From the NCBI GenBank assembly GCA_036172245.1, contig JAYWIR010000088.1:248001-284384 (forward strand): a DNA stretch of 36,384 nucleotides. Direction: 5' to 3'. The notes under the pieces are model-generated. The model was not told the origin of the DNA. It did no database searches and worked only from the letters and a program-made list of their open reading frames with translations. Shown one piece after another: positions 5,753 to 32,945 of this stretch. Origin of the DNA: Raillietiella orientalis. Taxonomy: Eukaryota. A program made the position numbers and the translations under genes. Position 1 is the first letter of the stretch. The number at the start of each line of letters is the position of its first letter.

Positions 5753-5847
5753 TTCTGCCTTGAAAACACCGCCCAAACACCACACAACCTACAAAATCGC
5801 GCTCAAATGCAGGAGCAGCAAAAAAAACACGTCTGCCGTCACTGCGG

Positions 5848-6630
5848 TTTTCACCCGGATATGCCGGGGCATTTATTTCGAAAAATAAAAATACATTAAT
5901 TTTTCCAGTGGAGAACCCGAAGGCGCACCATGCCAAAACAGCTTGCTGGTTGCCGGCGCTAGGCCGGAGAGGTCCTTCCCATGCGCGGGGATGGGAAATA
6001 AAGAAAAACAAAGAAACAAAAAGTTCAAATGTTCAAATGCGAACGCCTCGAGTGCAACAATGATGTCGCGGTCCGTGATTCTCGGTCGAATGACCGAGTG
6101 CTGGACCACGAAAGATTGGTCCTGGACCCAGGGGATGGCCTCCTTACCCCTTATTTTCAGGGGGGTTCGCAGTAGGCGCTGGACGAGGGCTGCATCCTTG
6201 CAGTGCACCTCCCAATGGCCTACCGCCTTTACTGGCATAAGCGCTAGGAGATCGTCCTTTCGGACCCCAACGCGTTCCAGCTCGCTCCAGAGCTGGTGGC
6301 TCGTCCCATCCCGGTACGCAGCACTGACCTTGTAGGCCATTGGGGCGTTGTAGCCACTCACGGCGTACGCCCGCAGCTCTGCCTTGTCGGGTGGGGCTCA
6401 GTGAGCCGCCGCTGCCTTAGCAACGGCGGCAAAACTTCTCGATGGAGGCGAGGGACTATCGGTGGAGGCTTCCACTCCTCCCGAAGATCCTGCGACGCAG
6501 CGGGATTCCTCCACCTCCATTTCTGCGGACACTGGCTTCATTTTCAAATAAAAAATCGCACCACACCCAAAACGAACAGCCGCAAAGATGCATTAAAGAC
6601 GGAGCGCAAGAATGCACGTCCGAAAAATGA
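5848..6630 (-). mobile_element. Element C: about 780 bp non-autonomous deletion derivative with both termini
   Basis: 5' end tcatttttcggacgtg. ORF1 N-terminal remnant at 6541 to about 6040 (GYNAPMAYKV...VQRLLRTPL) joins directly to a T-rich 3' UTR, AATAAA and terminal hairpin cccgg-catat-ccgggtgaaaa. Confidence 0.85.
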
Positions 6631-6922
6631 AGGGGGTCGGCTGTACTGGCAATGCGGCCTCCGCAACACCTGCGCGGTCGCGTTCTTCGTCAAGCCAGCC
6701 ATCGTCACTGCCGTGAAGGGTGCACTCTTTGAGGACGACAGTCGGGTCGACCAGCTGATTGTCAGGTGGTCCGACTCGATCGATCTGATCGTCACAAACG
6801 TGTATGCCTCCAGCGGCAGACAGGGCTACAGCTAACGAACCAGGTTGCTGGAAACCCTGAAACGCGACTAGCTACGGAAATCAGCGTGCGAAAGGCTCAC
6901 CTGATAGCGGAAGATTTCAATC
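6631..6922 (+). pseudogene. Fragment D: isolated endonuclease-domain segment
   Basis: GGRLYWQCGLRNTCAVAFFVKP...NVYAS...HLIAEDFN, homologous to 26262-26555 and 34860-35150. Confidence 0.88.
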
Positions 6923-6999
6923 GAGTGCGGACGTGTTTTCCTTCGCTCTCGCCTCCGTGCTTTCATCCGCTTCATCTTGGCGTCGTACATTTTGACGAC

Positions 7000-8921
7000 G
7001 ATATCGACCCAACCCGAAGCAACTAAAGTTGGAGGAACAGCATCCGGATCTGAATCGCGGAACCGACGGCCGCCCCCACTACGTCTTTCTCGCGAATGGA
7101 GAGGAGTTTTGCTGACGTTGCTGCCACAGCAGCCGTCAAAGGGAAACCACTCGACGAGTCGGAGTTGCGGGCATAAGTAGCCCAAGGCTATAGACCTGCT
7201 CTCCGATATAAGGTGAGTGGTTTTCTTTCTGCGCTCGACGGGAATCAGTTCAACGATGAACTGACCCGTGTTGGCGTGCGGGAGGAGGACCTCCTCGCCA
7301 TTATGCCCGTAAAGGATATGGGCTATTTCAAGGTGCGTTGCAAAGACGCTGCACTTGTGCAGAGCTTGCTGCGCACCCCGTTGTCGATCCGTGGCCAGAA
7401 GGTCTTCCCGGCCGCCATGGACGACTCATTTGTGGCGGAGATTTTCGACATCGAGTCGGAAATCTCCGATATTGATATTCGGAACGCGTTGGCGAAATTC
7501 GCCACGGTCCATGCGCTGTGGAGGGTGCGTAGCAACCTCAAGGACTTCCCGTCCATACACAGCGGAGTCGCTGGAGTCCGGCTTAAAATGCCGGACCGCC
7601 GTCTGCTGCCCACCAAACTACAGGTGAAAGACACGGTCGTTCACCTGTGGTTCGTGGGCAAAGTAAGAACGCGCGAGCAATGCGGAAAGGAGGGGCATTG
7701 TTTGGATAAATGCCCCTCTGGAAAATGCCGTTATTGCAAACTATCGGGACACCAATTGAAAAATTGCCCGGATCTTTTGCGAAAAAAGGCAGCCGCGAAG
7801 CTCCATTTTAAAAAACAAAGCGCGGATAAAAAGAAAAAATCAGGGAAAAACCTGGAGACCTCACGGCAGAAATTCCGAAAAAACGCGAGGCGGAATGTCG
7901 CCCCAAAGCAGCAGCAAACCTCGCAAGCGAAGCCCTGAGCGCCCTCTCTCTTGGCAGGGGAGCCGCAAAAGAAAGGGTGCGGGGAATCTGGGGCAATAAT
8001 AAGTCCCCCTAGGCGCAATAGCTGTCTTTCCCAAGCCCGCTCGGCTCTCTCGGAGTTCGAGCAGCCGGCGGGGACGCCAATGGACAACGGCGGTAAGGAC
8101 ACTTCCAGTACCGTCAGATCCATTCCTTCACCTCCTGCAGTGGCTGAGAAGCCCAAATCGGGTAAGAAGGGTTGTGCCGTGTCGACTTCGAAAGTCGACA
8201 AAAAAAATCCGCGTCGCGATCCAACACCGCGAAAGCGGAGAAAAATCTCACGCCGTCGCAGTCGGAGAGCAAGCTCTGGACTGGCGCGGATGCCATGCCA
8301 ACGGAGGGATTAAAAGCCCTTCCGAAAGCAGCGTCCATGACGAGCGTGTCGGAGTCATCGAAAGTGCTCCCGTCCAAAGACGCGGATGGCTTCAAAGATG
8401 GCAATGGAGCACAATCTCCATTTACGGCGCCACGCAAAGTGAGGAACCGTAATGAAGTAAAGAAGACTTCAGCAAAGGTCCCTCGGGCAACTGCGCGTGA
8501 GCACGCTGAAAACGCGCGCGCAGGGAAAGCAGCCGTCACCAAAAGCGATGCTCTGGAGACGGAAAAAGACAACAGGACAGCTGTCAATCCAGCAGAACCT
8601 GTCACTGCTTCGCGGAAGGCCGAAACCCGATCGAACATGCGCCGGTCGGACTCCGAAATGGATGCCGTTCCGATCACCGAGACGAGGACAACTCGTTCGA
8701 AAGCGTGTGCGCGCCTATCAAAAGTAGGCAGCGAGGCAACGCTCGCCGCGAAGCAGCGCGAAGTCTCCACGAAACCCGACGGGGTTAAGCCTGGCGTGGA
8801 GGAATTGCATGCATGCAGCACGACGGAGGACGGTGGCAACCGTCATCTCCAGCCAATCGTGCTGCTCGCCGTCTGCTCGCCGGATAAAGCGAGCAAAAAG
8901 CCGCCACCTTCCCAGCAGTAA
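7000..8921 (+). pseudogene. ORF1 of E1 (disrupted; start approximate)
   Basis: ORF 7213..7938 is clearly similar to ORF1 of A. Knuckle CRYCKLSGHQLKNC. Internal stops and frameshifts. Confidence 0.82.
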
Positions 8922-10636
8922 TGCGGGGAATCGCGTCTTCTCGTCGTCTGTCCGTAACGTGTTGGAACGTGAACGGACTACAGAACGACGAGAAGGGGCG
9001 ATTAGTAGCCAACGCCCTGCGCCCCTTCGACCTCGCGCTCCTGCAGGAGATTCACGTAATCTCCGACGTGAAGGCAGCCGAAATCGAGGAGCGCGCAGGG
9101 GAAACGCTACATTGGCGGTGCGGCGGCGCACACACGTGCGGCGTCGCGTTCATCGTAAGATGAAAAATGGCGGAAGCGGTGCGTAGTGTTCGTTTCGATG
9201 ACGACGAACGGATAGGCCAGCATGTCATCAAGTGGTCCGAGTCTATCGATCTCATCGTTACGAACGTCTACGCGCCGTGTGGCTCTCGCTACCTCGAAGA
9301 AAGAGTAGCTTTCTTTGGTGAGGTGCAGAGCCACTGGCTCAACAACTCCGGCTTCCAAGTGGCGCACCTCGTCGCTGGGGACTTCAACGTCCGCCTGCTG
9401 TCCGACGATTGGAGCCGCCCGAGGGAGCGCGCGCTGCCCATCGAGATGTGCGCGTCCGTGCACGCCGCCAACTTGATGGTCAGCGAACCTGGAATGGAAA
9501 GATCTCTCGATCACGTTTTCCTCGATGGAAACCTGCATTCGCGTGTGGGTAGCAGAGGAAGATTGTTGACTAGGCTTTCCGACCACCACAGGTTGGAGTT
9601 TGGGATCCTTCCGCCAGGCAGGGGGCCTCCGTTGCAAAACTGGAGGATACAGGTGGATTGGCATAGCCAACCGGAGGCTGCGGAGCATCTACGTGGATAC
9701 CTCCGAGGCTTTGCCATTCAAGAACTTGCGGACTGGGACGATCTGAAAAGATCTGTCCGCGAGTTCTGCTGCCAATTCCCCTTGCACCGGCTTCCACGCG
9801 GTTTCGGAGAGGGCGTGGCCAACAGCAGAGACTTTCTGCAGGCCCGCACGTTTTCGAGACGCGCGGATGTCGGGCGTCTCGCGGAGTACAAGGCGAGAGC
9901 CGAGCGCCAGGTCTGGCAGTCCGGAGCAGCATTCCTGTTCGACGACAAGGACCAGGAATGTTCGGCCCCAGCCGAAGTACGCCGCATTGTGAGACTCTAC
10001 TACTCCTCGCTTTACGCGGAATCCCCGACGGAGGATATTCTCTCTGAGATACTCCTGTCTCAGGATGCTGGTGTTGTCGGCGAGGAGGAACGCGAACGTC
10101 TGAACGAGCCCTTCACGGCGGATGAATTTTAGTCCGCCATCGCTGGGCTGAAGAGACGAAAGGCGCCAGGCGAGGATGGGCTCCCTGCAGAGTTTGATCA
10201 GTGCTTTGCAGTGGAGCTCATTCCCTTGATGCTGAGACTCGCGACGCTGATGAGTGAATCCGGGAATGTCCCGGATTCCTTCCGCTCAGCGAAGGTGCGT
10301 CTCCTGCCGAAAGGCGGAGACTTGCGTCAACTTAACAACTGGCGTCTGATCACCTTGGTGAACTCGGACATCAAGTTGATTTCCAAGCTGTGGGTCGCGC
10401 GGTTAGAAAGTATCGCGGAATCTGTGGTGAGCCTGGAACAAACCTACGCGGCTCCGGGACGATCCATGGAGGCGAACATCCTTTTCGCGCGTACATGTAT
10501 GCAGCTGCAGGAAGTTGTTGCGCAGCAAAGACAGGCTGCTGCGAAAGTCACTGCCGCATGCAAGAACAGGCGCCGACGGCAGGAGGGAACGCCAGGTGCC
10601 TTGGCGCTCGCGGTCGATCTCCACAAGGCGTTCGAT
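8921..10636 (+). pseudogene. ORF2 of E1, endonuclease plus RT N-terminal part (in-frame stops at 9161 and 10130)
   Basis: Motifs WNVNG, LLQEIH, NVYAP, GDFN, SLDH, SDH, LLPKGGD, DLHKAFD. Confidence 0.92.
10622..10635 (+). repeat. Target-site duplication of E2, left copy (cacaaggcgttcga)
   Basis: Identical 14-mer at 22116-22129. The other paralogous KAFD sites in the window differ at 2 or more positions. Confidence 0.85.
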
Positions 10637-12987
10637 TTTCACCCGGATTTCTCCGGGTCGTTTATTTAAAAAATAAACTTTGTAAACAAATTATTAATGG
10701 CTGTGGCAATGCTCCAGCCAGAAGCTAAGAACCACGGTGCCTGCCAATTCACCGGTTTCTAGACCGATACCGTCCACCAAGGCAGCAGGGGAAAGAAGAA
10801 AAACAAAAACACTAAAGAAAAAAAAAAAAGGGTGGGAGAGAACGGGAAGGGATCACTGTTGCTGCTGGGGCCGCATCATCCTTCTCAGGATGCTGACAAG
10901 CTCTTGTTTGTTGTGAACATCCAGGTGGGGCCATCCCGACGCCCTTCACAGGAATTTGGAGGCGCACTGGATGGCGTTTATATCGCTAGGTCCTCCCGTC
11001 GCCGTGCTCCAGGCGGCGACGATCCCACGAAGGCAGCACAAGTCTGCTATGGAGGACGCTGGCCGCAGGGCGTCGGCAACGAAGAAGGCTTTTAGAGCGT
11101 CCCTGGGGTTGCCGCAAAAAATACCGATGGCCGCGGCAAAGCGGAACCAAAGGGGCCGAAGGGCAACACAATCCACTAGGAGGTGGGGGAAGGACTCCCG
11201 TTCCCCACACCTGACGCAATTGGGGTCCACCGCTCCCCAGGTCCAGTTGTGTCGGCGGCCGTTGCAGGGGAGTCCCCAGTGCTGCAACAGGAGAGCCGAC
11301 TCCTGCCATTTTAAGGGGAGGGCGGAAGTGTTCATGAGCACCGGGGGCCACTTCAGATGTTCAATGGGAACATCGAGCAGCACGCCCCAGCGCAGAAGTC
11401 CATTGGGAGGCGTACTCGGGGTTTCAGCGTCTGTTAACTGCCCCGTCTTCCACTCTCCTATCTTCTTCTCCTTTCCGGAGATTGTTACTGTAATCACCCA
11501 CTTCGCCGCAGCATCGCTGTCCAGATCTTCCATCAGGGAAGGCAGCGCAGCAGCGAGGGGGGTTCTTCCTGCCACGCTCTCTTCTTTGGATCCTCCAGGA
11601 TCTCGCGGAGCATGCAACTTCTGTAACCCCCAAACAGGAACCTTCGTTCCTGTTTGCCGCGTTGCATGCCGAACTGTCCCCACGTTCGAACGGTTTACGG
11701 CAACCAGGCACTACCGTTCAACGGGCGACAGGTGAACAATCCTGGGTTTTTCGGATACAGCGCAGCCACCCTCCGTAGCTGGAGTCCGCATCGGTTGACG
11801 CGGCGACGGAGTGCAAGAAACGACGTCAGTCCCGTCTTGCCGGTGGCTTGCTGGAGTAGGAGACGTGCAGGGACGCACCAACAGGTGCACCACAACTCTG
11901 GAACGAGTGCCGACAAGCGGAACTGGAGCTGAAGCTCCAGCCGCTCCAGCGTCAGGAGGCCCAGACCACCATCCCGACGAGGAGCGCACAAGTCCTTTAA
12001 GCGGACTCGGGCCCTAACGTTGCCTCAAGGGGCGATACGGAGAAGGTCCTTCGTCCGCTTTTTGATCCTCTCTGTAAGGGGGCAAAAAAAAATGCAGGGA
12101 GCGGAGGAGAGGAGCCGCGAACGTGTTGCAAACCGCGGCCCGTTCAGGCAGGGAAAACCTGCCGCCTCGGAACGGGCCGATAGCCGTCTCTACTTTTTGG
12201 AGGCAGCCGGACCACGCTTCCGCAGGGGAGTAGTCCCCCAACGGCACACCAAGGTACTTGAAGTACCTCACCGTGGGGATCCATAAACGGACCCAGTCCT
12301 GCTGCCCTGCCCACGCCGCACCAACTGGCATCACGGACGACTTCGCCCTGTTCACCGTGAGTCCGGTTCCCCGATGCAGCAGGTCGAAGAACTCCTCGAC
12401 CGCCGCAGCCCGGGTGGACATAGGGTGCAGCAGCAAAAGGTCGTCCGCGTATGCTGAAACGGCCGGCGTACCGGCACAGTCGTGCGGCAGGTGCGCCAGA
12501 GTTCCCCTGTACGCTCTCAGTACCAACTCAAAGTAGGTACTGAAGAGCAAGGGGTCCAGGCTGTCTCCCTGCCGGATACCAGGTCGCACCGGCACGCCGT
12601 GCACGGTCTGCCCGCTGAAAGTAACTTCGATGATCGCGTCGCTCCAGCAGGAGCGCAGATAGGCCACTAATGAGGACGGGAAGCCCAAGCGTTCGAGAAG
12701 CTCCAGAAGGAGATTCTGGTCGACGCAATCGAATGCTTTCTGCAAGTCGATTGCGACCGCAAGGGCTCCCTTCCCCACCCGTCCATCCAACCCCCTGCCG
12801 GCGCACGCATTGGAATTCCGGCTGCGCACCAAGCTCCTTTCTTGTTGGAGCTCTAGCCAGGCGGATGCGTGGAACAGGTTCGCCTCCATGCTTCGCCCGG
12901 GAACAGCATAAGTCTGTTCCCGGCTGATGAAGATGTTGGCAACCCTTCCCAGACGCTCTGCCCAAACCTTAGCCAGCAACTTGGCGT
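10636..12987 (-). mobile_element. Element E2, 3' half (RT core, C-terminus, 3' UTR)
   Basis: AKLLAKVWAERL, DLQKAFD, GIRQGDSL, AYADDL, KYLGV, CVRCGERESFPHLLVDC, stop at 10855-10853. Terminal hairpin acccgga-gaaa-tccgggt. Confidence 0.92.
12973..12987 (+). repeat. Target-site duplication of E3, left copy (ccagcaacttggcgt)
   Basis: 14/15 match to ccagcaacctggcgt at 18884-18898, directly flanking both termini of E3. Confidence 0.8.
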
Positions 12988-13156
12988 GCGGACGTGTTTT
13001 TGTAGCGCTCCTGCGCGCCTGGTGTAAAGCGTTTGGTTTCTTTTGTGTATGTGTGTGGAGAATCTGCGGTGTCCAATGGCAGAAATACCTGAGGACACCG
13101 CGATGGATATAGGAGGGGGAGAGGCTTGCCCCTCTCCCCAACCCACGGGGGTGGGG

Positions 13157-13348
13157 GCAACCGCCCCCACGGAGGCGACGGCAGCCGCACCCCTGAAAAA
13201 GGGGGCAACCGTCGCCTCGGTAGCAAGGGCAAAGGCCCCCTTGAAAAAGGGGGCAAAAGCCCCCCTGGAACAGGGTGCAACCGCCCCCTTGAAAAAGGGG
13301 ACAACCGCAACCGTGGAAACTGGCGCAATTGTTTACTTGAAAAAGGGG
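13157..13348 (+). repeat. Coding 24-bp tandem repeat, 8 units (ATAPLKKG-like)
   Basis: Consensus gcaaccgcccccttgaaaaagggg. Confidence 0.88.
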
Positions 13349-14778
13349 GCACTTGCACCCTCGAATGCGTCTTCGGCATCGCCAAAGACCTGGAGTCCAG
13401 TGTCTGCAGCCCCATCTACTGGAGCCCTCGCCGAGCAGAAAGCCTACCTGGAGCAGGGATACAAGCCGTCCCTGAAATACAAGGTAGGCAAACTGTTTGT
13501 CGGAAACACCGCTTGCAACTTCGAAAGAAAGTTGCAGCGGTTGAACGTAAAAGAGGAAGACCTGGAAGGTCTTTCCGTGTTGAGTGGTGGTCAGCGGGTG
13601 GAGCTGACTTGCAGAAATGCAAGCCTTGCTCAACACCTCCTGAATACGCCAATCACACTGGAAGCCCGAAAGGTTTTCCCGGTAACGGAGGATCGCTCCG
13701 TGGTGACGCACCTCACGGGAGTCACCCTCCGCATGGCGAAAGCCGACGTGCAGGAGGAACTCGGAAAATACGGAACGGTTAACGCGCTATGGCCCAAGCC
13801 CAACGTCTTTCGGAGTTACGAAAGACTGTTTAGTGGCATGGCTGGTGCGCGTGTAACCGTCCACGAAAACGGTGGGCTACCCCACAAACTAGACGTCGGC
13901 AACGAGACCGTCGACGTCTGATACGTGGGCAAGCCCAAGTACTGTGGACACTGTGATGCCACAGGGCACCTGAAAAAGCGGTGCCCTCACATCCAGTGTT
14001 TCCACTGTGGAGAGAAGGGCCACCTCCGCAAAGTGTGCCCGAAGCGCGAACCTCCGGCTCACGCTGCTTTGAAAAAGGCCAAAGGGAAAGGCGCGGAGGC
14101 TACGGAAAACCCTGCGAAGTTACCCGTGAGGCGGAACCCACAGCCGGAGCCCGAGCTGCAATCGCCGATCGTGGAATCTATCGACGACGCTGAAAAGAAC
14201 GAAGGCTGGCAGAAGGCGAAGCCTAAAGCTAAAAAACCAAAGAAAACCGCAGGATCGACAGCGGAACCCGCGACGTCTCCTTTAAATAGGAGACAACGCC
14301 GCGCGTTGATTCGCGAATGTTCGGTCGCTTTGGAGCGTGTGTAGGTAGCCGAGACCGCCAACGGGGGAGATATCCCCCGCGTCGACGCCGACGATAACGC
14401 GATCACGGAAGGCGAACCCTCTGTGCAAACAGAGGGGGAACCGCGCGACGCGCTCGCCGCGATCGACGAGGCCGCCTTCCAGCAGGCGGCGGAAGAGCTC
14501 GCGGCCGAACTCGCCGACCGTAAAAACGGCGCGCGAAAGGCCTTGCGAAGGCCGGCCGCGACCAGGGCACCTTCGACAGGTGACCACGAACCGGATGCCG
14601 GAAGTGCGTCCTCTTCCACGGAGGCGCCTCCGAAGAAGACTGGACGGAAGTCCAGGAATCCCAAGAGGGGCATCCCGACAAAGAAGGAGGGGGACGCACC
14701 GGCATCCGAGGGGGAAGCCGGCAGCGTGGGAACGGAGGGAGGGATTTTCCCACCCTCCGCTACCTAGCAGCTGGAGAC

Positions 14779-15008
14779 CCCGATGGAGGAGGGGGATAAG
14801 GTGAGTGATTGCCGCCCCCACCCAACGGTGGAATCTGTCCAGGAGATAGCCATGGAGGAGGGGGAGCAGACAGCTGACAACCGCTCCCCCCTGCCGTCCA
14901 ACGCAGCCGACGAATCGGCCCCCATGGAAGAGGGGGAGCAGGTGCGTGGAACCCGCCCCCTTCAACCGTTGCGGTCCGCCGAGGAAGCGGCCCCCATGGA
15001 GGAGGGAG
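14779..15008 (+). repeat. Four spaced (P)MEEG acidic repeats at the ORF1 C-terminus
   Basis: atggaRgaggg recurs about every 70 nt. Also seen at 25845-25993, 31126-31355 and 34442-34590. Confidence 0.8.
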
Positions 15009-15090
15009 AACCGGTGCGCGTTGATCCCGTTCCTCCATCCGTCCCGCCCGACCAGGTGGCGGGAGCCCCATTGCCACTTTCCCAGGAGTA

Positions 15091-18000
15091 AAACCTGGGC
15101 TCGCCTGTCGCCGTCGATTACGCGTGGCCTGCTGGAACGTGAACGGGCTGCGCGACGACGGCAACAGACAAGACACGGCCGCCACCCTGCGTGACTTCGA
15201 CCTGGCACTCCTGCAGGAGATCCACGTGATCACCGCGGAGAACGCCCAGGAGATCGAAAGGATCGCAGGGGGACGGTTGATGTGGCAATGCGGCACCAAA
15301 TACACCTGCGGCGTCGCGTTTTTTATGAAGCCGGCAGTCGACGCAGCCGTGAAGAGCGTGCGCTTCGACGAAGCCGGTCGTGTCGGCCAGCTGATTCTCA
15401 AATGGTCCGACACGATCGACATCGTCGTAACAAATGTGTACGCTCCGAGCGGTCCTACCAGGTACCAGGAACGTAAGGCGTTCCTGGAAACCCTGAAGCG
15501 CGACTGGCTGGTGGAAGCGAGCGTGCGCGTGGCTCACCTGATAGCGGGAGACTTTAATCTCCGCCTTCTATCAGGTAAGCCACACGCACAAGAACGGACG
15601 GCTAACGAGTTGTGCGCCGCCATGCGCACGCGCAACTTGTTAGGGGATCTTTCGGAAATGGTCAGCAGCATCGACCACGTCTTCCTGGATGTCGACCTGT
15701 GTTCACGGGTCGGCAAACGAGGGAAAGTTGCGTGGGAGCTGTCTGACCATTTCCGGTTGATATTCGAGGTGTGCCCGCGCGACAAGGGTTCCCCATCCAG
15801 GGCGTGGCGTCTGCCTGGGGACTGGACGCGACTCTCAGGTGCGAAGGAACACCTTCGCGAATTCCTGAGAGGCGTCACCCTCCGCAGTCTCAAGGATTGG
15901 GACCTCTTCAAGGCCTCGGTCCGCGAGTTCTGCGAGGAGTTTCCCCTGCACCGCCTGCCCCCCGGATTTGGGTAGGGGGCTCGGAACCATAGGGCTTATT
16001 TACAAGCCCGCCGGTACGAGAGGACCCCCAATGTCCGTCGCCTGGCAGAGTACCGAGCCGAGGCCGAACGTCAAGCCTGGCAATCCGGATCGGCCAGCTT
16101 GCTGGACGACCAGGGCCGGGAGCACTCGGCTCCGGCTAGAATACGGCACCTCGTGCGGCGTTTTCATTCCTCCCTTACGCCAGGGCGCCCCCGGACCAAG
16201 ATACCTCTTGGCGCTTGCTTCCGAACGGTGCCCCGGCAATAGGGGAGGAGGAGAAGGAAAGCCTCGACGAGCCTTTTACCACCGGCGAAATTCTCGCCGG
16301 TATCAAAAGGCTGAAGATACGGAAAGCACCAGGGGAGGACGGCCTGCCTGCGGAGTTTTTTCAATGCTTTGCGGGAGAGTTCGCACCCCTGGTGCTTGAG
16401 TTGACAAGGCTGATCCGAGATGAAGGCGATGTACCCGCCTCGTTTCGGTCAGCCAGAGTGAGGCTCGTTCCGAAAGGAGGAGACCTCAGGAAACTCAGCA
16501 ACTGGCGTCCGATCACAATTGTGAACACGGACGCCAACTTGATAGCCGGACTGTGGGCTTCGCGTCTGGGGCAGGTTGCCAATTCCATAATTAGCCCGGT
16601 GCAGAATTACGCTGTTCCCGGGCGAAGTATGGAGGCCAACCTCTTCTTCGCGAGCACATGGTTTCATGTGCAGAGTAGTCAAGAAAAGGAAGAGGGAAGG
16701 ATTGGCAGCCCCGCTTTAGGGGCGTCAGCCGGGCAGGGACAGGACTCCCAGGTGGGGAAGGGAGCCCTAGCGATCGCAGTCGATCTGCACAAAGCGTTTG
16801 ACTGCGTGGACCAGGATCTCCTGCTGGAGCTCCTGGGACGCATGGGCTTCCCTCCCTCCCTACTGACCTACCTGCGCTCTTGCTGGCGCGGCGCGCTGAT
16901 CAATATCTCTTTCAGAGGTCAAATGGCGTACGGCGTGCCGGTACGGCGGGGCATACGGCAGGGCGACAGCCTCAGTCCCCTGCTCTTTAGCACCTACTTT
17001 GAGTTGGTGCTGAGAGCGTACAGGGTGACTTTGGCCCCCTTGCCGAGCTCGTGCCCCGTCACGCGCGCCGTAGCAGCGTACGCCGACGATCTTTTGCTTC
17101 TGTTGCCGATGTCCACCCCGGCGAAGGCGGTCGGGGATTTCTTCGATCTGCTTAGCCACGGGACCGGACTTACGGTGAACAGGGCGAAGTCGACGGTGGT
17201 TCCAGACGGTGCGGCGTGGGCTGGTCAGCAGGACTGGGTCCGCTTAAGGATCCCCACGGCGAGGTGCTTGAAGTACCTTGGTGTGCCGTTGGGGGACTAC
17301 TCCCCTGCGGAAGCGTGGTGCGGCTGCCTCCAAAAAGTGGAAGCGGCGATCGGCCCGTTCCTGGAAGAGAAGTTCCTTCTTCCGGAACGGGCCGCGGTAT
17401 GGAACGCGTTTTCGGCTCCTATCCTCCGCCCCCTGCTTTTTGTTTGCCCTGTCCCCAGAGAGTTGAAAAAACGGACGAAGGACCTCCTGAGAATTCCCCT
17501 TTGGGGAAGAGGGGGGCCCCGAGTCCCGTTGAAGGACTTGTGTGCTCCACGTCGGGATGGCGGTCTTGGCCTCTTGACGAAGGAGCGAGTAGAGATTGAG
17601 CTGCGGTGGCGAACCGTCGCCATCGCAGCGAAGTTATGGAGCACTTCTTGGTGCGTTCCGGTCCGACTTCTTGCCAGCCGTGTATCCGGAACGGAGGGTC
17701 TCGCGTCCTATCTTCTGTGCCGTGGCAGGAAGATCAAGAGATGCGGACTTCTCCTGGGACGCATTGCAACTCTGGCTAGGGAAAACGGCTGGATGGTATG
17801 CAGCCCTGCCAACTCCTCCGCATGTCTGGAGGAGGCAGCTGGCACGTAGGCGAAGATTAATGAAAAAAATGAAGAGATGTGGAACTGCCTGCGACGCGGC
17901 GCCTATTCCCGCTGCACTCTGCGGAAGATACACCAGTGTCCCGTGAGAAGCACGTGGGCAGAGGCAACCCCCCTAGCTACGGCGATGCCCTTCCTGAGGA

Positions 18001-18677
18001 GGGCGCTCTCCAGCAGCCGCAAGCCTAGGGGGCAAGTCTCCTGCCGCATCGCAGGCAAGGAGAAGTTGATCAGCGGCTGGTCCACGGGTGAACTGGCGGA
18101 CGCCAGTATCCCTACTGTCCAGCCGAGAGGACTCCAGAGATGGGGTGAGCTACTCGGCATCCAGCCGGATGACCTCAAGTGGCCCCCGGTATTAATTGGA
18201 TCTAGGATCCTCCCCCTGAAGTGGCAGGAGTCGGCGCTTCTGTTGTTGCATTGGGGTCTACCCTGCAACGCACGTCGCCACCACTGGACCAGGGTTCGTA
18301 TAGATCCTACCTGCATCAGGTGTGGGGAACGGGAAACACTCCCCCACCTCCTTGTTGATTGTACTGCACTCCGACCCCTGTGGGAACGTCTTCGTGCCTC
18401 CCTACGGATCCAGGAGGGCAGCCAGCCCAGAGACGTTTTTCGGCTTTTGTTCGTGCATGATGCCCTGCGGCCAGCCGCTACCCTGGCTGCACTTTGCTGC
18501 GTACGCGGGATTGTGACGTGCTGGAGCAACGTCAGAAGACCGAGCGACGACAGGAATGCCGTCGTACTTGCAGTCCGCTAACTGCGGATTGTGACCAGAT
18601 GGCCCCACCTGGGAATTACACGGACGGACCTCGAGGGCATCCTGCGAAGGATGGACCCTCCTCTCAGTGGTCAGTGA
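15091..18677 (+). pseudogene. ORF2 of E3: APE endonuclease, reverse transcriptase, C-terminal Cys/His finger (stops and a frameshift)
   Basis: WNVNG, GDFN, SIDH, SDH, KAPGEDG, WRPITIVNTD, DLHKAFD, GIRQGDSLSPLLF, AYADDL, KYLGV, CIRCGERETLPHLLVDC. Confidence 0.95.
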
Positions 18678-18883
18678 TCCCTCCCCAACCTTCCCAAATC
18701 TTTTTGTTTTTACGTTTTAATTTTCTTTTTGTTTTTTCCACCACCCCCTTCCGCTGCCGAGGAGAGTCGCGCCGGTCTGCGTACCGGCGACCCGGCAGGT
18801 CCAGTTGAGTTGGCCGTAGTGGGGCCTCGTTCCACGAATCAGAGAGAAATTTTAATAAGCGCCCCGGCGTGACCGGGTGGCAA

Positions 18884-20345
18884 CCAGCAACCTGGCGTCC
18901 GCATTCACTATTGTGATGGGACGCCAGTTGTTCATGCTCCTCAGATCTCCTCCCTTAGGGGGGAGCCGCACCTTTGCCGAACGAAACGAGGCGGGAACGT
19001 CACCTGTTTCGCGTATCAGCAAGGTGAGTTGCTGTACCAGGGGGGTAAGCTCAGCCGCGAAAGTTTGTTAAAACTCCGCGAGCAGTCCGTCCTTCCCTGG
19101 AGCCTTTCGCCTCTTGAGCTTTCCGATGGCCGAAAGGATCTCGTCCATCGTGAAAGGCTCGTCGAGACTCCTTTTCTGCACCTCCCCGATCGCTGGAGCG
19201 CCTTCCGGAAGCAGGAGTCGTGAGACGTTCCTCTCCGGAGGTGCCCTGGCATACAGGGAGGAGTAGTAACTCCGCAGCAGGCCGCGGATTTGCGCAGGTG
19301 CCGAGTGCTCCTGGCCCTCATCGTCCAGTAAGCTGGCTGATCCGGACTGCCAGGCTTGCCTCTGGGCTCCCGCTTTGTATTCCGCTAGCCTGCGGATGTC
19401 GGGGGTCCTGACGTAACGACGGGCCTTCAGGTAGGCTCGTTCGTTACGGACCCCGGTCCCGAAACCCGTAGGTAGGCGCTGCAGAGGGAACTGGTCGAAG
19501 AGCTCCTGGACCGAGCGCTTGAAGCGGTCCCAATCTAGGAGTGTCCGCAGCCTGAAGCTCCGTATGAACGTGCGGAGATGTTCCGCCGCGTCCGAGCGCT
19601 TCAGCCAGTCCCCTGGGAGACGCCACGCTGACGAGGGGGGGCCCCTGTCGCGCGGATGGATCTCGAGGACTAGCGGGCGATGGTCGGACAGCTCGCACGG
19701 TAACTTGCCGCGCCTGCCCTTGCGAGGGCACAGGTGCTCGTCAAGAAACACGTGGTCAATGCTGTCTTCCATGCCCGGTGCACTGGCGAAGAAATTACAG
19801 GTGTGCACAGCCATGCACACCTTGTTGACCAGGTCACGCTCGGGATTCTGCCCATCTGGTTCCAGACGAACGTTGAAATCGCCTGCAACCAGATGGGCAT
19901 TCCGCACGCCTGCCCCGGGCAACCAGTCGCGATGGAGGGCAAGGAAAAACTCTTTCCTCGCCCTCCTGGTCTTCAGGTCCGCGCCGCTCGGTGCGTACAC
20001 TTTCGTGACGATCAGATCGATCGAGTCGGACCACCTGAGAGTCAGCTGGCCGACACGACCGTGATCGTCGAACCGCACGCCCCGAGCCGCGGCCTCGACG
20101 GCTGGCCGAAGCAGGTAGGCGACACCGCAACTTTTCGCTCTCCCACACCTGTACCATAGCCGCCCTCCGGAGATCCGTTCGATCTCTTGCGCTTGTTTTG
20201 CAGAGATCACGTGGATCTCCTGCAGCAGCGCAAGGTCGTAGGACTCGAGAAAGGCGACCATGTCTCGTCTCCAGCCGGCGTCTGTCATGGCGTTCACGTT
20301 CCAAACGGCGATGCGCAGACGACGGCGGGAGGAGATTCCCGGCAT
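18884..20345 (-). pseudogene. ORF2 of E2, endonuclease plus RT start (stop at 19070-19068)
   Basis: WNVNA, LLQEIH, VYAP, GDFN, SIDH, SDH, KAPGKDG. Confidence 0.92.
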
Positions 20346-22021
20346 TACTGCTGGGAAGATTAAGGTGTGGGGGAGCCCTCCTCTTGCGAGGCGGGCGGGA
20401 TGTCCATGGGGGTTTCGGCCTTCTCAGGCACCTGAGGCACCTGTTCGGCCTCCACCCCCTCCATCCCTTCCGTGTCTGTGCGTGGGAGTCTCTCGGGCGA
20501 CGGGTCCAGAGAGTCTCTTACGCTCATGGCACCCTCGCTTGCGGAAGCCATCTCTTCCCCTTCGACGGGGGAGACGAGCTTTCTTGGCTTTGTGGACTTA
20601 CGTCCAGCCTTCTTGCGCGGTGCCGTGTAAACGGAGGCTGCGCTTCCGGCCTCCACCTCGGGGTCGGAAGTGGGGGACTCCTGAGGAAAGGCCGGACGCC
20701 TTACGGCCTTCTTGCCAGCCTTGGAGGGTTCTGGCTGCAACGAGGCTGCCAGCTCCTCCGCAGCTCGCGCGAAGGCTACGTCATCGATGGTGGTATCGAT
20801 GACGGACGCCGTCGCCGGCTCGCTCCATTCGCTATTGACTGTGTCAACAGAGGGGAGGTCGTCGGTAGCGGCGAGTTCTTTCCGGCAGCGTTCGGCAACA
20901 TCGAGAACGCGTTCGACAACGACGCTGCACTCTTTAATCATCGTGCTACCCTGCTTTTTGATCTTCTGTTGGTAGGCGAATTTCTTTTCCATCCTCCTCT
21001 CCTTCTTTGATTTATCGGCCGTTGCCACTTGCGACCCAGTCTCCTGACCGGCTCCCTCAACTTTTTCGGCGTTGTTCGCCGGGGTCTAGGGTGCAACCTG
21101 GGTCTTGGGCGCGGGTGGCACAGCCTTCGCGGCAGCTTTCGCCGCCAGCCTTTTCTGCAGAAGCCGGGTGCGGTTTTTAAGGTTTCTCTTGGAAGCCACC
21201 CGCACTGCTGCTTTCGGGCACACCTCCCTCGTGTGGCTTATTGTGCCGCATACTTGGCACTGCACATTGGGACACCTCTTTTTGAGGTGGTTCGACGTAT
21301 TACAGAAGCCACAGTATTTCGGCTTCCCCACATACCAGAGGTCGACGGTTTCGTCTTCGACCACCAGCTTGTGGGGAAGAGTGCAGCCCTCCCGAACGGT
21401 CACGCGCGCAACAGTGAGCCCGTGTTGCAGCCCCGTGTAGTCCTCGAAAGGACTCACTTTCGTCCACTGCGCGTGGACCGTTCCGAACTGTTCCAAAGCG
21501 GCGCGAAAGTGTTCTTTGCGCATTCGCGCGGTGACGCCTAACAGGTGGACCACCATGCTGCGGTCCGCCGTAGTGGGGAGAAGCCTGCGCGTCCCCATCA
21601 CAACGGGGGTTTCAAGCAGTCGTTGGGCCAGCTCTGCATGTTTGCAGATGACCTCAACGTACTGACCCCCGCTGCGGATGGCCATAGCGCTAAGCTCCTC
21701 CACTTTCACATCGAGAGCGCGCATGCCCTGCGAGGAGGCGCGCGCGCTCTCTAAAGAATATAAATTGCCTACCTTGTAGAACAATGAGGGGTTGTACCGC
21801 TCCTCTACATAGGCCGACAATTCCGCCGCGGCTGCAGGCGATGGCGCCGACTCAACAACGTTCCGCGCCGGCGCTTCAGCGGGAACCGATTCTGTGGGGG
21901 CGGATGCCCCCACCTCAATCGCCTCTGGGGGCGACGTTGATGCCGCCTCCTGGCTCTCGATCGCCTTTGGGGGCGGCGTTGTCGCTGCCCCCTGGCCATC
22001 CCTGGTGGTCGCGTCAGGCAT
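20345..22021 (-). pseudogene. ORF1 of E2 (disrupted)
   Basis: MPDATT start. Knuckles CGFCNTSNHLKKRC and CQVCGTISHTREVC. Stops at 21088-21086 and 20362-20360. Confidence 0.88.
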
Positions 22022-22115
22022 CGCTGCCTGATCGACCAACGAACCACACGACGCTTGCACTGGGGAAGACTTCTTGGCACGAGGAGCATCGAGAGAACAC
22101 GTTCGCCCTAGAGCG

Positions 22116-24221
22116 CACAAGGCGTTCGACTGTGTAGAACAGGAACTCCTCTTGGAGCTCCTGGTTCGCATGAGCTTCCCACCCTCCCTGATTTGCTACC
22201 TGCGCTCTTGGTTGCGGAATGCGATAACTATCGTCTCCTTCAACGGTCACAAGGTGCATGGCGTGCCGGTGGGGCGGGGCATAAGGCAGGGAGATAGTCT
22301 CAGCCCCCTGCTCTTCAGCACCTACTTTGAGTTGGTGCTGAGAGCGTAAAGGGTGACTCTGGCCCCATTGCCGAGCTCGTTCCCCGGCACGCCCGCCGTT
22401 GCAGCGTACGCCGACGATCTTCTGCTCTTGTTGCCAATATCCACCCCGGCAAAGGCTGTCGGAGATTTCTTCGATCTGCTCAGCCGCGGGACCGGACTGC
22501 AGGTTAACCGGGCGAAGTCGTCGCTTGTGCCAATAGGCGCGGCGAGGCCAGGGCAGCAGGACTGGGTCCGTCTGGGGATCCCCACGGCGAGGTGCTTCAA
22601 GTACCTTGGTGTGCCGTCGGGGGACTACTCCCCTGCGGAAGCATGGTCCAGCTGCCTCCAAAAAGTCGAGACGGCGATCGGACCGTTCCTGTAAGGCAAG
22701 TTTCACTTGCCGGAACGGGCCGCGGTTTGGAACGCCTTCACGGCCCTCATCCTCCACCCCTTGCTTTTTGTTTGCCCCGCCCCAGGAGTAGTTAAAAAGA
22801 GGACGAAGGACCTCCTCCGCATCGCCCTTTGGGGCAAAAGGAGGCCCCGAGTCCCTCTGAAGGACTTGTGCGCTCCGCGTCTGGACGGCGGTCTTGGCCT
22901 CCTGACGCTGGAGCGCGTGAAGAAGCAGCTGCGGTGGCGAACCTTCGCCATCGCAGCGAAGATGTGGAGCACCCCTTGGTGCACTCCGGCCCGTCTCCTG
23001 GCCAGCCGTGTATCCCGGTGCGATGGACTCGCGTCTTTTCTTCTGAGCCGTGGCCGGAAGTTGCGAAGATGCGGCCTACTGCTCGGGCGCATGGCAACAT
23101 TGGCCAAGGAGAACAGCTGGATGGTTTGCTGCCCCGCCAACTCCCCCGCCTGGCTGGAGGAGAATATTGGAACGTGGGTAGTGGTTAACCAGAGAAGCTA
23201 GGAGACGTGGAATCGTCTCCGATGCAGCCCCTACTCCCGCTGCACGCTGCGGAATCTCCTGGAGAGTCCAGCAAGATGCACGTGGGCAGAGACGACCTGC
23301 CTAGCTACGGCGCTGCCCTTCCTGAGGAGGGCACTTCACAGCAGCCGGACGCCAAGGTGGCAAGTCTCCTGCTGCATCGAGGGACGCGAGAAGTTGATCA
23401 GCGGCTGGACAACAGGAGAACTGGCCGACGCCACGACCCCGAGCGTCCAGCCGCGAGAATTATTAAGATGGGGCGAGCTGCTCACCATCCCCAGGGATGA
23501 GCTGAAGTGGCCCCCGGTGATGAAGGAATCCAGGATCCTGCCCCTCAAGTGGCAAGAGTCGGCGTAGCTTTTGTTGCACTGGGGTCTACCCTGCAACGCG
23601 CGCCGCTTCCACTGGACGATAGGAACTGTGGATCCTGCATGTGCCAGGTGCGGGGAGCGGGAGTCTCTCCCCCACCTTATTGTGGATTGTGCTGCCCTCC
23701 GACCCCTTTGGGAACGTTTCGAGACGACCCTCGGGCTCCCTACGGGGAGCACCCCTAGAGACGTTCTTCGGCCCCTTTTCGTGAAGGACGCACTGCAGCC
23801 AGCCGCAGACATCGCAGCCTTGTGCTGTGTCCGTGGAATCGTGGCGGCATGGAGGGACGTTAATAAAGAAGGAGTGGGTCCACAGGCGAGGGCTGTCATC
23901 CCGTATACCCAACGCTTCTTGCGAAGAGCTGCCGGATGGCCCCAACTAGGAGATATGCGGAGAGACCTCGAGGGCTTTCTTCGAAGGATGGGCCCTCCTC
24001 ACAGCGACCAGTGATCCCTACCCTTCCCTGCAAACTCTTTTTGTTTTTTTATTTCTTTATTTTTCTTTTTGTTTTTCCCCTCATCCCCTTGCGCTGTCGG
24101 GGAGTGCCACGCCGGCGGCGTCCCGGTGTCCCGACAGGTCCTGTGTTTACGGCCGTGGTGGGTCCTTGTACCACGCATGTAAAGTTTATTGATAAACGCC
24201 CCGGGCGTACCCGGGTGATAA
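22116..24221 (+). mobile_element. Element E1, 3' half (RT core from HKAFD, C-terminus to stop at 24014, 3' UTR)
   Basis: Begins with the right TSD copy. GIRQGDSLSPLLF, AYADDL, CARCGERESLPHLIVDC. Terminal cccggg-cgta-cccgggtgataa. Pairing with the 5' half rests on the TSD. Confidence 0.85.
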
Positions 24222-24239
24222 CGCCGAATCGCTTGGCGA

Positions 24240-26891
24240 GTGGATGTGTGTTTCCTTCGCTCCCGAGTGAGTCGACAGGAAGCGGTTGTTTCTTTGTGTG
24301 TGTTCGTGTGGAACATCGTTGGTGTTCGATGGCAGCGATGCCTGAGGACGCCACGATGGAGGTAGGTGTGGGGGAGGCTTGCCCACCCCCACATCCTACA
24401 GAATCAGAAGCGTCCGCCCCGGAATCGCCCTCGCCGCCCAAGGCGAGGAACTGGAGCGCCATGGTGGCCGCGCCGAGCGCGAAACCGTGGCCGAGATGGC
24501 GGCCTACCGGGCAGCTAGGTACAAGCACAGCCTGGTGTACCAGGTAGGCAATCTCTTTGACGGGTGAACTGCACGCGCTTTTTCGAAAGCGCTGCAGAAC
24601 GCCAACGTGTTGGAAGAGGATCTTGACGGTCTATCCGTGCTCAGCGGGGGTCAGCACGTCGCGGTTGTCTGCAAGGACATCACCTTGGCGCAAAGCTTGA
24701 TAACCACCCCGCTGAACGTGGACGGACGCAAGATCCTACCAGTCACGATGGACCGCTCCGTAGTGGTTCATCTGACAGGGATCACCAGCCGCATGACGCG
24801 GTCTGCGGTTGGTGATCAGTTAAGAAAGTATGGAGATGTTCACGCGGTATGGCCAAAGGCCACAATCTTCGATGGCTACGATAGCCTTTTCGGAGGGCAG
24901 GCCGCCGCGCGCGTGACGGTGAAGGAGAGTGGGCTTCCCCACAAACTAGAGGTCAATGGCGAAGTCGTAGACCTCTGGTACGTGGGGAAACCCCGCTTTT
25001 GTGGCTACTGCAATGCAGTAGGACACTTGCGCAAGCGGTGCCCGAACATTGTGTGCCACTTATGCGGGGAGAAGGGCCACGTACGCCGCGTATGCCCTAA
25101 ACGCCCCACTCCGGTGCCGCCTGCTGCAAAGAAAGCACAGGCAAAACGCGATGAACTGGTGGAAAGACCAAAAAGAGATACTGGCCGGCAGCAGCCGCTA
25201 GCCCCTGTTCCTCCCACACAGGCGTCGGAAGAAAAACCCTCCGAAGACGCGGGAGTCCAAGACGGCTGGCAGCTGGTCAAGGCCAGGAAGGAGAAAAAAA
25301 TGCCCCCCGCGGAACCCGCGAAAGCGGTAAAAAAGACAGCCGGCAAGGCAAAAAAACCTGGGCCGCGCTCCAAGACCATGCGGGAGTGTACGGTAGCACT
25401 GATGCGCATAGCCGTTCCCGAGATTGCCACCCGGGGCGACGAGCCTTCCCTCGCCGTTTCCGGGGAGCCCGAGGTTCGCGAAGGCGAACCCTCTGTTTAC
25501 ACAGAGGGTGAGCCCCGCGAAATAGCGGCGGTCGAAGCCGCGGACGCCGCGTTCGCGCAGGCGGCCGAGGAGCTCGCGGTCACTCTGGCCGAGCGTGGGA
25601 ACCCCTCGCGCAAGGCAGTGCGAAAGCTGGCTCCGCCCAAGAAGGCCCACGCAGGTGAGTTCGACCTGGAAGCCGGAAGTGCATCCTCCTCCTCGGAGGC
25701 ACCCCCCAGGAAGTCGGGACGCAATTCCCAGAAACCCAGGAGGCGCCTCCCCTCCACGAGCGAGGAGGAGAAGCAGGAAGCTAGCGGTAGCGTGGGAATC
25801 CCGGAGGGGGAACTCCCACGCTCGGAAGCCGTCGAGCCGGCCACCCCCATGGAGGAGGGTGAGCAGGAGGGCGAAGTCCTCCCTGCAGTCGCAGAGCCTA
25901 AACAGCCCGCCCCCATGTAGGAGGGCCAACAGGTAGGCGCGACCCCACCTGAGGGTGACCCGCTCGACGCGCCGTTACCCATGGAGAAGGGGGACCAGGT
26001 GCAAGCTTCGCCTGACTCTCCTCCTCCACCTAGCGTCCCGCCCCAACAGGCGGCGGACGCCGCATCGCCATCTTCGCAGGAGTAACAGCTGGGCTCGCCA
26101 GTCGCCGTCGGATTCGCGCCGCCTGTTGGGACGTCAACGGGCTGCGCGACGACGGTAACAGGCGAGATACGGCCGACACCCTGCGTGAGCTCGACCTTTC
26201 CCTGCTGTAGGAGATCCACGTGATCACCGCGGCAGACGTCCAGGAGATCGAGACGATCGCGGGGGGTCGGTTGTATTGGCGAAGCGGCCTCCGCAACACC
26301 TGCGGGGTCGCGTTCTTCGTGAAGCCGGCCATCGGCGCTGCCGTGAAGGGCGTGCGCTTCGATGACGACGGTCGTATCGGCCAGATGATTCTCAGCTGTT
26401 CCGAATCGATCGATCTGATCATCACGAATGTGTACGCCCCCAGAGGCAAAAAGGCTCATCTCGATTGTACCAATTTGCTGGATTCCCTGAAGCGCGACTG
26501 GCTGGCGGAAACAAACGTGCGAAAGGCTCACCTAATAGCTGGAGACTTCATTCTCCGCCTGGTAACAGGTGAGCCTGAAACACAAGAGAACGCGATGAAC
26601 GAGTTGTGCGCCGCCATGCGGGCGCGCAACTTGTTCGCGGGTGAGAGGGAAATGATCCGCAGTATCGACCACGTCTTCCTTGACGCTGACCTGTGTTCAC
26701 GGGACGGCACACGAGGGAGATTGCGTCGACGCTGTAGGACCATTCCCCGCTAATTTTCGAGATGCCACCTCGAGACAAGCGACCGCCATCTAGGGAGTGT
26801 AGTATGCCGGGGGACTAAACGCGACTCTCAGGTGCGAAGGAACACCTTCGCGAATTACTGAGAGGCGTCACGCTCCAGAGTCTCTCTTCAA
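24240..26891 (+). mobile_element. Element F: 5' part (ORF1 24329-26085, endonuclease 26085-26891), decayed
   Basis: 5' gtggatgtgtgttt. Knuckles CGYCNAVGHLRKRC and CHLCGEKGHVRRVC, motifs NVYAP, GDF, SIDH. Ends at the (WD)LFK-coding ctcttcaa. Confidence 0.9.
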
Positions 26892-32200: not shown

Positions 32201-32945
32201 TTCGCGAATTCCTGAGAGGCGTTACCCTCCCCAATCTTAATGATTGAGACCTTTTTAAGGCCTCGGTCCGCGAGTTTTGCGAGGAGTTCCCCATGCACCT
32301 CCTGCCTCGAGGATTTGGGGAGGGCATCCGTAACGGACGAGCGTACTTGTATGCCCGTCGTCACGCGAGGACCCCCAATGTCCGTCGCCTGGCAGAGTAC
32401 CGAGCCGGGGCCGAACGTCGAGCCTGGCAATCCGGATCGGCCAGCTTGCTGGACGACCAGGGCCGGGAGCACTCGGCTCCGGCTAGAATACGGCACCTCG
32501 TGCGGCGTTTATATTCCTCCCTTTACGCCAGGGCGCCCCCGGACCAAGATGCCTCTTGGCGCTTGCTTCCGAACGGTGCCCCGGCAATAGGGGAGGAAGA
32601 GAAGGAAAGCCTTGACGAGCCTTTTACCACCGGCGAAATTCTTGCCGGTATTAAAAGGCTCAAGAGGCGGAAAGCACCAGGGGAGGACGGCCTGCCTGCG
32701 GAGTTTTTTCAATGCTTCGCGGTAGAGTTGGCACCCCTGGTGCTTGAGTTGACAAGGCTAATCCGAGATGAAGGCGATGTACCCGCCTCGTTTCGGTCAG
32801 CCAGAGTGAGGCTGCTTCCGAAAGGAGGAGACCTCAGGAAACTCAGCAATTGACGTCCGATCACAATTGTGAACACGGACGCCAAGCTGATCGGCGGACT
32901 GTGGGCTTCGCGTCTGGGGCAGGTGGCCAATTCCATAATTAGCCC
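29233..32945 (+). mobile_element. Element H: E3-family copy, 5' part (ORF1 29321-31438, ORF2 31438-32945), decayed
   Basis: Colinear with 12988-16597. 5' gcggacgtgtttt. Ends at VANSIISP. Confidence 0.92.
29402..29689 (+). repeat. Coding 24-bp tandem repeat, 12 units, with a 48-bp higher-order period
   Basis: gcaaccgcccccttgaaaaagggg alternates with acaaccgccgccttggaaaaggcc at 29522-29665. Confidence 0.9.

Follow-up and report, generated by a model that had tools for sequence, protein, structure and literature searches.

How can a stretch of genome come to consist of nothing but copies of one retrotransposon, lodged inside one another? This question is raised by the 36,384-nt stretch analysed here (the window; Raillietiella orientalis, contig JAYWIR010000088.1, positions 248,001 to 284,384), in which a first-pass annotation had described three long interspersed nuclear elements (LINEs), E1, E2 and E3, inserted one into the next in alternating orientation and flanked by target-site duplications. 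The E1 > E2 > E3 nest is real and its inferred order is right; taken alone, it is ordinary. With a probability of about 70%, we propose that the window is a LINE-only island that has grown by the family's preferential, nearly always antisense insertion into a few positions of its own copies.

One LINE family occupies the window

Self-comparison, mapping in E3 coordinates and inspection of junction sequences divide the whole window into at least 12 LINE copies or fragments, nested or abutted, and the parse found no non-LINE sequence in the entire 36,384 nt (G+C content 54–68%, N absent). One protein set recurs in the stop-to-stop open reading frames (ORFs) of both strands: an ORF1-like protein with two CCHC knuckles visible in the translations, an APE endonuclease, a reverse transcriptase (RT) and a Cys-rich C-terminal part. 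In Pfam searches (cut-offs of 24.5 bits for PF03372, 29.6 for PF00078 and 27.5 for PF13966), the APE region matched PF03372 in E3 (46.8 bits) and E2 (46.9 bits) and, weakly and under the cut-off, in E1 (17.1 bits). The RT matched PF00078 (RVT_1) with 77.5 bits in E3 and 62.1 bits in the second copy scored, while the Cys-rich part scored 23.6 bits (E3) and 23.4 bits against PF13966 (zf-RVT), both under the cut-off; none of the three ORF1 pieces searched matched a Pfam family. The closest outside relatives have APE, RVT_1 and zf-RVT together. Reading frames are broken in every copy of the window.

The elements possess the ORF2 feature of the L1 clade, an N-terminal APE endonuclease followed by RT. 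A poly(A) or A-rich 3′ tail, likewise an L1-clade trait, is missing: no poly(A) tail was found at the six visible 3′ ends, five of which run CCGKGTGNNAA straight into the flank. Judged from these sequence features, the elements are APE-type LINEs of one family, about 5.6–5.9 kb in length. The only family members found in public protein sets were P0088 (68% identity, 619 aa) and P0135 (76%, 132 aa), the next representatives reaching at most 35%, and the named relatives of the RT are plant and charophyte RT proteins at 21–26% identity. A scan of genome contigs gave 30 pattern matches and a metagenome scan with an RT alignment gave 32, with no relatives in either; the 29 metagenome loci found with the 3′-end pattern included none homologous to the window by blastn.

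Junction sequences of the three-level nest

E1 spans positions 6923–24221 (+) and contains E2 (10636–22116, –), which in turn contains E3 (12988–18883, +). Direct reading of the junctions bore out this three-level nest with its duplications, and the earlier description was correct in every checkable particular. E3, put at about 5.9 kb, measures 5896 nt; it has both termini, no insert, broken ORFs, a 3′ motif at 18864–18883, and matches to APE, RVT_1 and, below the cut-off, zf-RVT. Its flanks, CCAGCAACTTGGCGT (left copy, 12973–12987) and CCAGCAACCTGGCGT (18884–18898), agree at 14 of 15 positions and can be written jointly as CCAGCAAC(T/C)TGGCGT. Excision of E3 and one duplication copy leaves an E2 of 5570 nt, as against the predicted 5.57 kb, and restores the minus-strand peptide NADA(K/R)LLAKVW across the two copies. 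E2 is flanked by CACAAGGCGTTCGA at both 10622–10635 (left copy) and 22117–22130, identical at 14 of 14 positions, and its excision with one copy yields an E1 of 5804 nt (about 5.8 kb had been given) in which the plus-strand peptide DLHKAFDCVEQ, split into DLHKAFD and HKAFDCVEQ at the junction, is restored. By our own arithmetic, a random 14/14 or 14/15 match at fixed junctions has a chance of the order of 1e-8.

The 5′ part of E1 (6923–10635, +) comprises the 5′ untranslated region (UTR), ORF1 with its CCHC knuckles, APE and the RT N-terminal to KAFD, its match to P0088 ending at 10636; the 3′ part (22117–24221, +) starts with the right duplication copy and carries the RT from KAFD on, the C-terminal domain, the 3′ UTR and a 3′ motif at 24201–24221. 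Likewise, the 5′ part of E2 (18884–22116, –) holds ORF1, APE and the RT up to NADAK, and the 3′ part (10636–12987, –) the RT from NADAK on, the Cys-rich C-terminal region, the 3′ UTR and a hairpin-like terminal motif (10636–10656), with matches to RVT_1 and zf-RVT. P0088, an outside relative that is uninterrupted through NADAK and KAFD, is colinear in tblastn across the split sites of both elements: the 5′ part of E1 ends at its residue 234 and the 3′ part begins at residue 230, and the two parts of E2 overlap at about residues 137–156.

All three elements keep their 5′ termini, as had been noted. The motif GCGGACGTGTTTT stands at 6927 in E1, preceded by four unassigned bases (6923–6926), and at 12988 in E3. 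E2 begins with the variant GCGAACGTGTTCT after nine extra bases; these bases (22108–22116), lying between the duplication and the motif, could be untemplated or could stem from a source copy that started further upstream. Geometry and duplications together imply the order E1, then E2, then E3, and the stop counts in the RT part relative to P0088 agree with E3 being the youngest: one in 594 aligned residues in E3, three plus a frame change in E2, and four in E1. Target-primed reverse transcription, proposed at the outset, fits the 14–15-nt stagger. The alternation of orientation within the nest arises because a general antisense rule, described below, was applied three times.

Two coding motifs are reused as insertion sites

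The junction between E1 and the 3′ end of E2 at KAFD aligns with zero shift to a second junction in the window, that between B and ZA, so that the two visible KAFD events (2/2) hit the same nucleotide. B (2297–5837, –) is the 5′ part only of a diverged element, split at this nucleotide like E1. ZA (1–2296, +) ends, on its 3′ side, at KAFD in B; its 5′ UTR and ORF1 are followed by a C-terminal and 3′ part of E2-like type, and APE and the RT core are absent. The switch from ORF1 to the E2-like part falls near 1190–1220. The window starts one base before the 5′ motif of ZA, and the record may begin at an element boundary.

At NADAK, the junction between E2 and the 5′ end of E3 aligns, again with zero shift, to the junction between E2′ (~26889–29232, –), the 3′ portion of an E2-like copy that is broken at this very NADAK nucleotide, and E3′ (29233–32945, +), an E3-like element whose 5′ end (motif at 29233) lies at that nucleotide. 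With G (24240–~26888, +), which has a full 5′ end (motif at 24240) and whose APE region is cut by the 3′ end of E2′, the 5′ junctions at NADAK are identical in three of three cases: E3 and E3′ abut CTTGGCG(T), and G abuts CTTGGCG(A). The G junction involves a third host, K, otherwise unseen, of which an 18-nt NADAK site (24222–24239, –) remains between the 3′ end of E1 and the 5′ end of G. When both strands of the window were compared with this remnant, a match of at least 14/18 was obtained only at the antisense NADAK site of E3′ (32879–32896; 14/18). Measured upstream from the NADAK junction point, the 3′ end of E1 is 18 nt away, and that of E3 is 15 nt away from its own. KAFD was thus used by E2 and ZA, and NADAK by E3, E3′, G and the 3′ end of E1. 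An E3-like module is involved in the four NADAK events wherever one is visible, and an E2-like 3′ module in the two KAFD events.

Two head-to-tail pairs with spacers of duplication length, E1/18 nt/G and C/10 nt/B, are the expected product of repeated use of one nick site. A pattern search that fixed the spacer of head-to-tail ends at 15 nt gave no match, the actual spacers being 10 and 18 nt. C (5848–6622, –) is an internally deleted copy of 775 nt with both termini (3′ motif at 5848–5867) and an ORF1-like ORF, and H (6623–6922, +) is a 300-nt APE fragment, aligned to E3, E3′, G and F, that lies between the 5′ ends of C and E1. Assignment of the C/B spacer (5838–5847) to host H is unsupported by sequence alone. 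C retains only the N-terminal part of ORF1, and about 17–20 nt of H are missing between its flanks, where a duplication would be expected.

Further junctions at about 15230–15260, 15559, 15891 and 16597 in E3 coordinates indicate more than one target in the family. Guidance by RNA–DNA homology (R-loops) found no support: in nucleotide conservation, the duplicated stretches reach only the 42nd–78th percentile when the copies are compared, and the exactness of position in hosts of about 60% identity also opposes it.

Insertions are nearly always antisense and mostly full length

All six visible 3′ junctions (ZA/B, C/H, E1/K, E2/E1, E3/E2 and E2′/G) are antisense to the host. Among the ten host–insert relations, eight are antisense (that of B resting on the weak 10-nt spacer), one is sense and one, that of E1, is mixed. 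The sense case is F (32946–36384, +), which lies in the same orientation as the adjoining E3′, is short of about 100 nt at its 5′ end and extends beyond the last base of the window. The joint of F to E3′ at 32945/32946 may reflect either an insertion that was truncated or a deletion that joined two adjacent copies.

The element ends are well defined. Allowing at most one mismatch, the 5′ motif GYRGAYGTGTNTT has nine matches in the window against 0.67 expected, and six of these are element starts (2, 5836(–), 6927, 12988, 24240 and 29233), the other three being internal. The family motif or a variant is present at eight of the nine visible 5′ ends (ZA, B, C, E1, E2, E3, G and E3′), C beginning with a variant as E2 does; the ninth is the shortened end of F. 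The 3′ motif CCGG-N4-8-CCGKGTGNNAA matches five times against 0.05 expected, and every match is an element end (2296, 5848(–), 10636(–), 18883 and 24221); the 3′ end of E2′ bears a degenerate form. A GC stem of 5–7 bp is predicted in four of the six 3′ ends, and one of the six folds stands out from shuffled sequences (z = –3.8). The hairpin is a predicted structure whose stem sequence is invariant and hence provides no covariation support. At the 5′ ends, no known ribozyme was matched in Rfam at gathering scores. The N-terminal region of ORF1 contains a 24/48-nt tandem repeat, the 48-nt unit being present in 3.2 copies in E3 (13142–13308) and 6.2 copies in E3′ (29398–29704).

Contigs of a public run

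Short contigs from a public run (X1), in which a fraction of 0.12 of the sampled words was present, supplied 535 related contigs that aligned to the window. Their source is a relative or a paralogous locus, with identity below 95% in most, and most of the listed joints connect homologous positions of paralogous copies and are uninformative on this locus. One contig of 3755 nt matches 6893–10635, from the H/E1 junction to the E1 break, with 121 differences, and stops at the break. Three contigs bear uninterrupted E2-like sequence across NADAK, and another has an E3-like 3′ end antisense in an E2-like APE region; provided that the C/B spacer derives from H, this end is 16 nt away from where the spacer maps by homology. 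An A/G-rich tract in the 3′ UTR of E2 (10790–10830) shows an X1 word depth of 445 in its bin against 2–43 elsewhere, probably a low-complexity pile-up.

Weighing the alternatives

Several observations weigh against the proposal that the family targets its own copies. The sample is one window with about ten events, and at least three further junctions lie at unique positions (~15559, 15891 and 16597 in E3 coordinates). Inspection by eye gave no convincing recognition motif common to the sites, only a weak R^CYRWG that three junctions show on the nicked strand, and the 10-nt C/B spacer has no host assignment by sequence, at least 37 window positions matching it equally well at 8/10. The antisense rule is broken by F in E3′, at a truncated junction, and by the 5′ flank of E1, which is also sense; E1, moreover, is without a duplication of its own. 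At NADAK, the pair E2/E3 compared with E2′/E3′ is 78–93% identical on the host side and 82–85% on the insert side. Two of the ten codon-position comparisons described below are exceptions (E3 APE versus E3′, p = 0.50; E2 C-terminal part versus ZA, p = 0.06). Finally, none of the X1 contigs, which are short, spans the E2 or E3 junctions.

The outermost element raises the question whether E1 is one element at all. The first-pass annotation had held that its reading would fail if the halves of E1 or of E2 belonged to different family consensuses; for E1, the data go halfway towards that. Against E3, identity of the 5′ part of E1 varies between 50 and 69% from one 150-nt bin to the next; it keeps to 54–67% up to the break itself, with 63% in the final complete bin ahead of it, whereas the first two bins after the break reach 74% and then 90%. 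The ranking relative to E3 flips at the same point, E2 being closer on the 5′ side and E1 on the 3′ side, and P0088 matches the 5′ part at 54% identity and the 3′ part at 65%. The outer flanks likewise belong to different hosts and strands: the 5′ flank is the APE region of H, in sense orientation and ending in GDFN codons, and the 3′ flank is the 18-nt antisense remnant of K, an arrangement that calls for insertion with a large deletion of the target, or for rearrangement afterwards. E1 might thus combine parts of two elements, both of which had received an E2-like copy at KAFD before recombination inside the inserts fused them. We consider this unlikely. Both halves carry the 14-mer in the same private variant (G at position 6), which is absent from the homologues in E3, B, E2 and E2′; the halves were therefore probably contiguous when E2 arrived, and a modular lineage is more likely than two elements. 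Other copies are modular too: ZA combines an E1-like 5′ part (68%) with its E2-like 3′ part, and between E3 and E3′ identity is 81% over ORF1 but 96% over APE. We infer that E1 represents a modular (recombinant) lineage.

A further explanation is that the repeated junctions are copies of older composites, spread by segmental duplication, gene conversion or retrotransposition together with the insert, with a single insertion per site. The NADAK pair lends itself to this: E2/E3 and E2′/E3′ run colinear for about 5.8 kb and match each other to a similar degree on either side of the junction, and along their alignment (10600–16700 versus 26850–33050) identity is a mosaic of 56–98% per 300-column bin, which suggests module exchange or gene conversion between copies. 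Taken alone, this pair is compatible with a copied or converted composite, and the independence of the NADAK events rests mainly on the third host, K, which, on a count by eye, does not match E2 at 5 of the 15 duplication positions aligned. At KAFD, however, the hosts E1 and B are only 60–64% identical in four 300-nt bins (1.2 kb), whereas the inserts E2 and ZA are 72, 84, 94 and 95% identical in bins going away from the junction, which excludes one duplicated block. Moreover, E2 and E2′ have different 3′ flanks and sit in different hosts and sites, E2 at KAFD of E1 and E2′ at APE position ~15891 (E3 coordinates) of G.

The differences between copies also bear the mark of selection. The ratio of nonsynonymous to synonymous substitution rates (dN/dS) was 0.20–0.49 in 19 of 19 pairs, values that the selection of alignments by protein may bias downward. 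In DNA-level alignments, which serve as a control free of this bias, mismatches were in excess at third codon positions with p < 0.01 in eight of ten comparisons, among them E2 versus E2′ (p = 1e-3) and ORF1 of E3 versus E3′ (p = 3e-8), a concentration unexpected for dead composites. Because the differences are shaped by selection, the copies diverged mostly as active lineages. Copying of composites is accordingly an improbable account of the reused junctions.

Nested transposons are common in repeat-rich DNA, and three of the junctions do lie at unique positions; it might therefore be supposed that the window holds three chance insertions in a repeat-rich region, with coincidental reuse of sites. 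This ordinary, untargeted nesting is very improbable. By our own arithmetic for a 5.8-kb element, counting nucleotide and strand, about ten insertions give 45 pairs at about 1 in 11,600 per pair, or about 0.004 expected coincidences, and at least three were seen; the six visible 3′ junctions are, besides, all antisense. Hardly credible, finally, is an assembly artefact in which diverged repeat copies were wrongly stitched, even in a window that is 100% repeat, given the exact duplications at both junction pairs, the frames that continue across them, copies that at 60–90% identity are distinguishable, and an independent X1 contig that has the H/E1 junction through to the E1 break.

A model for self-targeted insertion

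In the model that we favour, insertion of the family into its own copies would begin with a nick that ORF2 makes in the sense strand of a copy already in place, at one of a few preferred positions (NADAK, KAFD and others in the APE region). Reverse transcription would then be primed at the conserved GC-stem 3′ end (...GTGNNAA), the second nick would fall 14–15 nt away, and copying would mostly reach the 5′ end. The strand-specific site preference would lie in the endonuclease or in another DNA-binding part of ORF2. Short forms without APE and RT, such as ZA and C, may be mobilised in trans via the shared termini.

Relation to known LINEs

Site-specific LINEs such as R1, R2 and the Tx1 group target host genes or other repeats, usually at one site per family. 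The window resembles them in the independent reuse of one nucleotide, in short defined duplications or deletions and in head-to-tail pairs with a common spacer; it differs in that the targets are the family's own coding sequence, with at least two exact sites and several others. LINEs of the stringent type have a conserved 3′ stem-loop. The window elements are similar in their conserved GC stem near the 3′ end, predicted in four of six, and in the absence of poly(A), but their stem is without sequence variation, and thus without covariation support, and one fold in six beats shuffled sequences.

Closer parallels come from LINEs that insert into themselves. Zepp of Chlorella and Coccomyxa and ZeppL of Chlamydomonas are described, in the portions of the literature drawn on here, as self-inserting L1-type LINEs whose clusters are nearly pure element and constitute putative centromeres (PMC8226300, PMC3446292, PMC9940879, bioRxiv 10.1101/2025.03.28.645958). 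Nested Zepp clusters measure 1.5–42 kb with 61% GC (PMC3446292), Zepp-type arrays consist mostly of 3′ ends owing to frequent 5′ truncation (PMC8226300), and ZeppL is about 8.3 kb long (bioRxiv 10.1101/2025.03.28.645958). The window is likewise a cluster of copies within copies. Here, in contrast, only one of nine visible 5′ ends is truncated, and the elements are 5.6–5.9 kb long against about 8.3 kb for ZeppL. Exact sites in coding motifs and an antisense rule are unreported in those portions of the Zepp descriptions, the comparison being one of descriptions and not of sequences. Cnl1 of Cryptococcus, according to the available part of its description, is a LINE that prefers itself as a target and forms nested arrays in tandem orientation, mostly 5′-truncated, at subtelomeres (PMC9942834). 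It shares with the window the self-nesting of LINE arrays, as far as that description goes, whereas in the window the 3′ junctions are antisense (6/6), the copies are mostly full length, and only F in E3′ has the same orientation as its host. Measured against these partial accounts of Zepp, ZeppL and Cnl1, the window stands out in that its insertions are antisense and hit exact sites within RT codons, and that its copies are mostly full length and lack poly(A). A literature search, with the original Zepp papers outside its scope, listed no paper on an antisense, site-exact, self-targeting LINE.

Implications

The nest as first described is an ordinary consequence of self-targeting, and the interest of the locus lies in the targeted, strand-specific insertion. 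Clusters of self-targeting LINEs are already known from green algae and Cryptococcus, and how such elements pick their own copies is unsettled. The window offers nucleotide-exact, strand-specific targets in conserved coding motifs, in hosts down to 60% identical, and thereby makes the targeting question testable; it also shows lineage-to-lineage exchange of modules and short derivatives without APE and RT at the same sites. A bolder reading, possible but to our minds doubtful, is that lineages of the family home, strand-specifically and nucleotide-exactly, into the NADAK and KAFD catalytic-motif codons of the RT of other lineages, each insertion gaining a harmless landing place and at the same time disabling a rival copy; on this reading, which site is hit may be linked to the 3′ module that an element carries. 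If this is true, the family would form self-renewing LINE-only islands, which might act as centromere-like regions or as sources of small RNAs.

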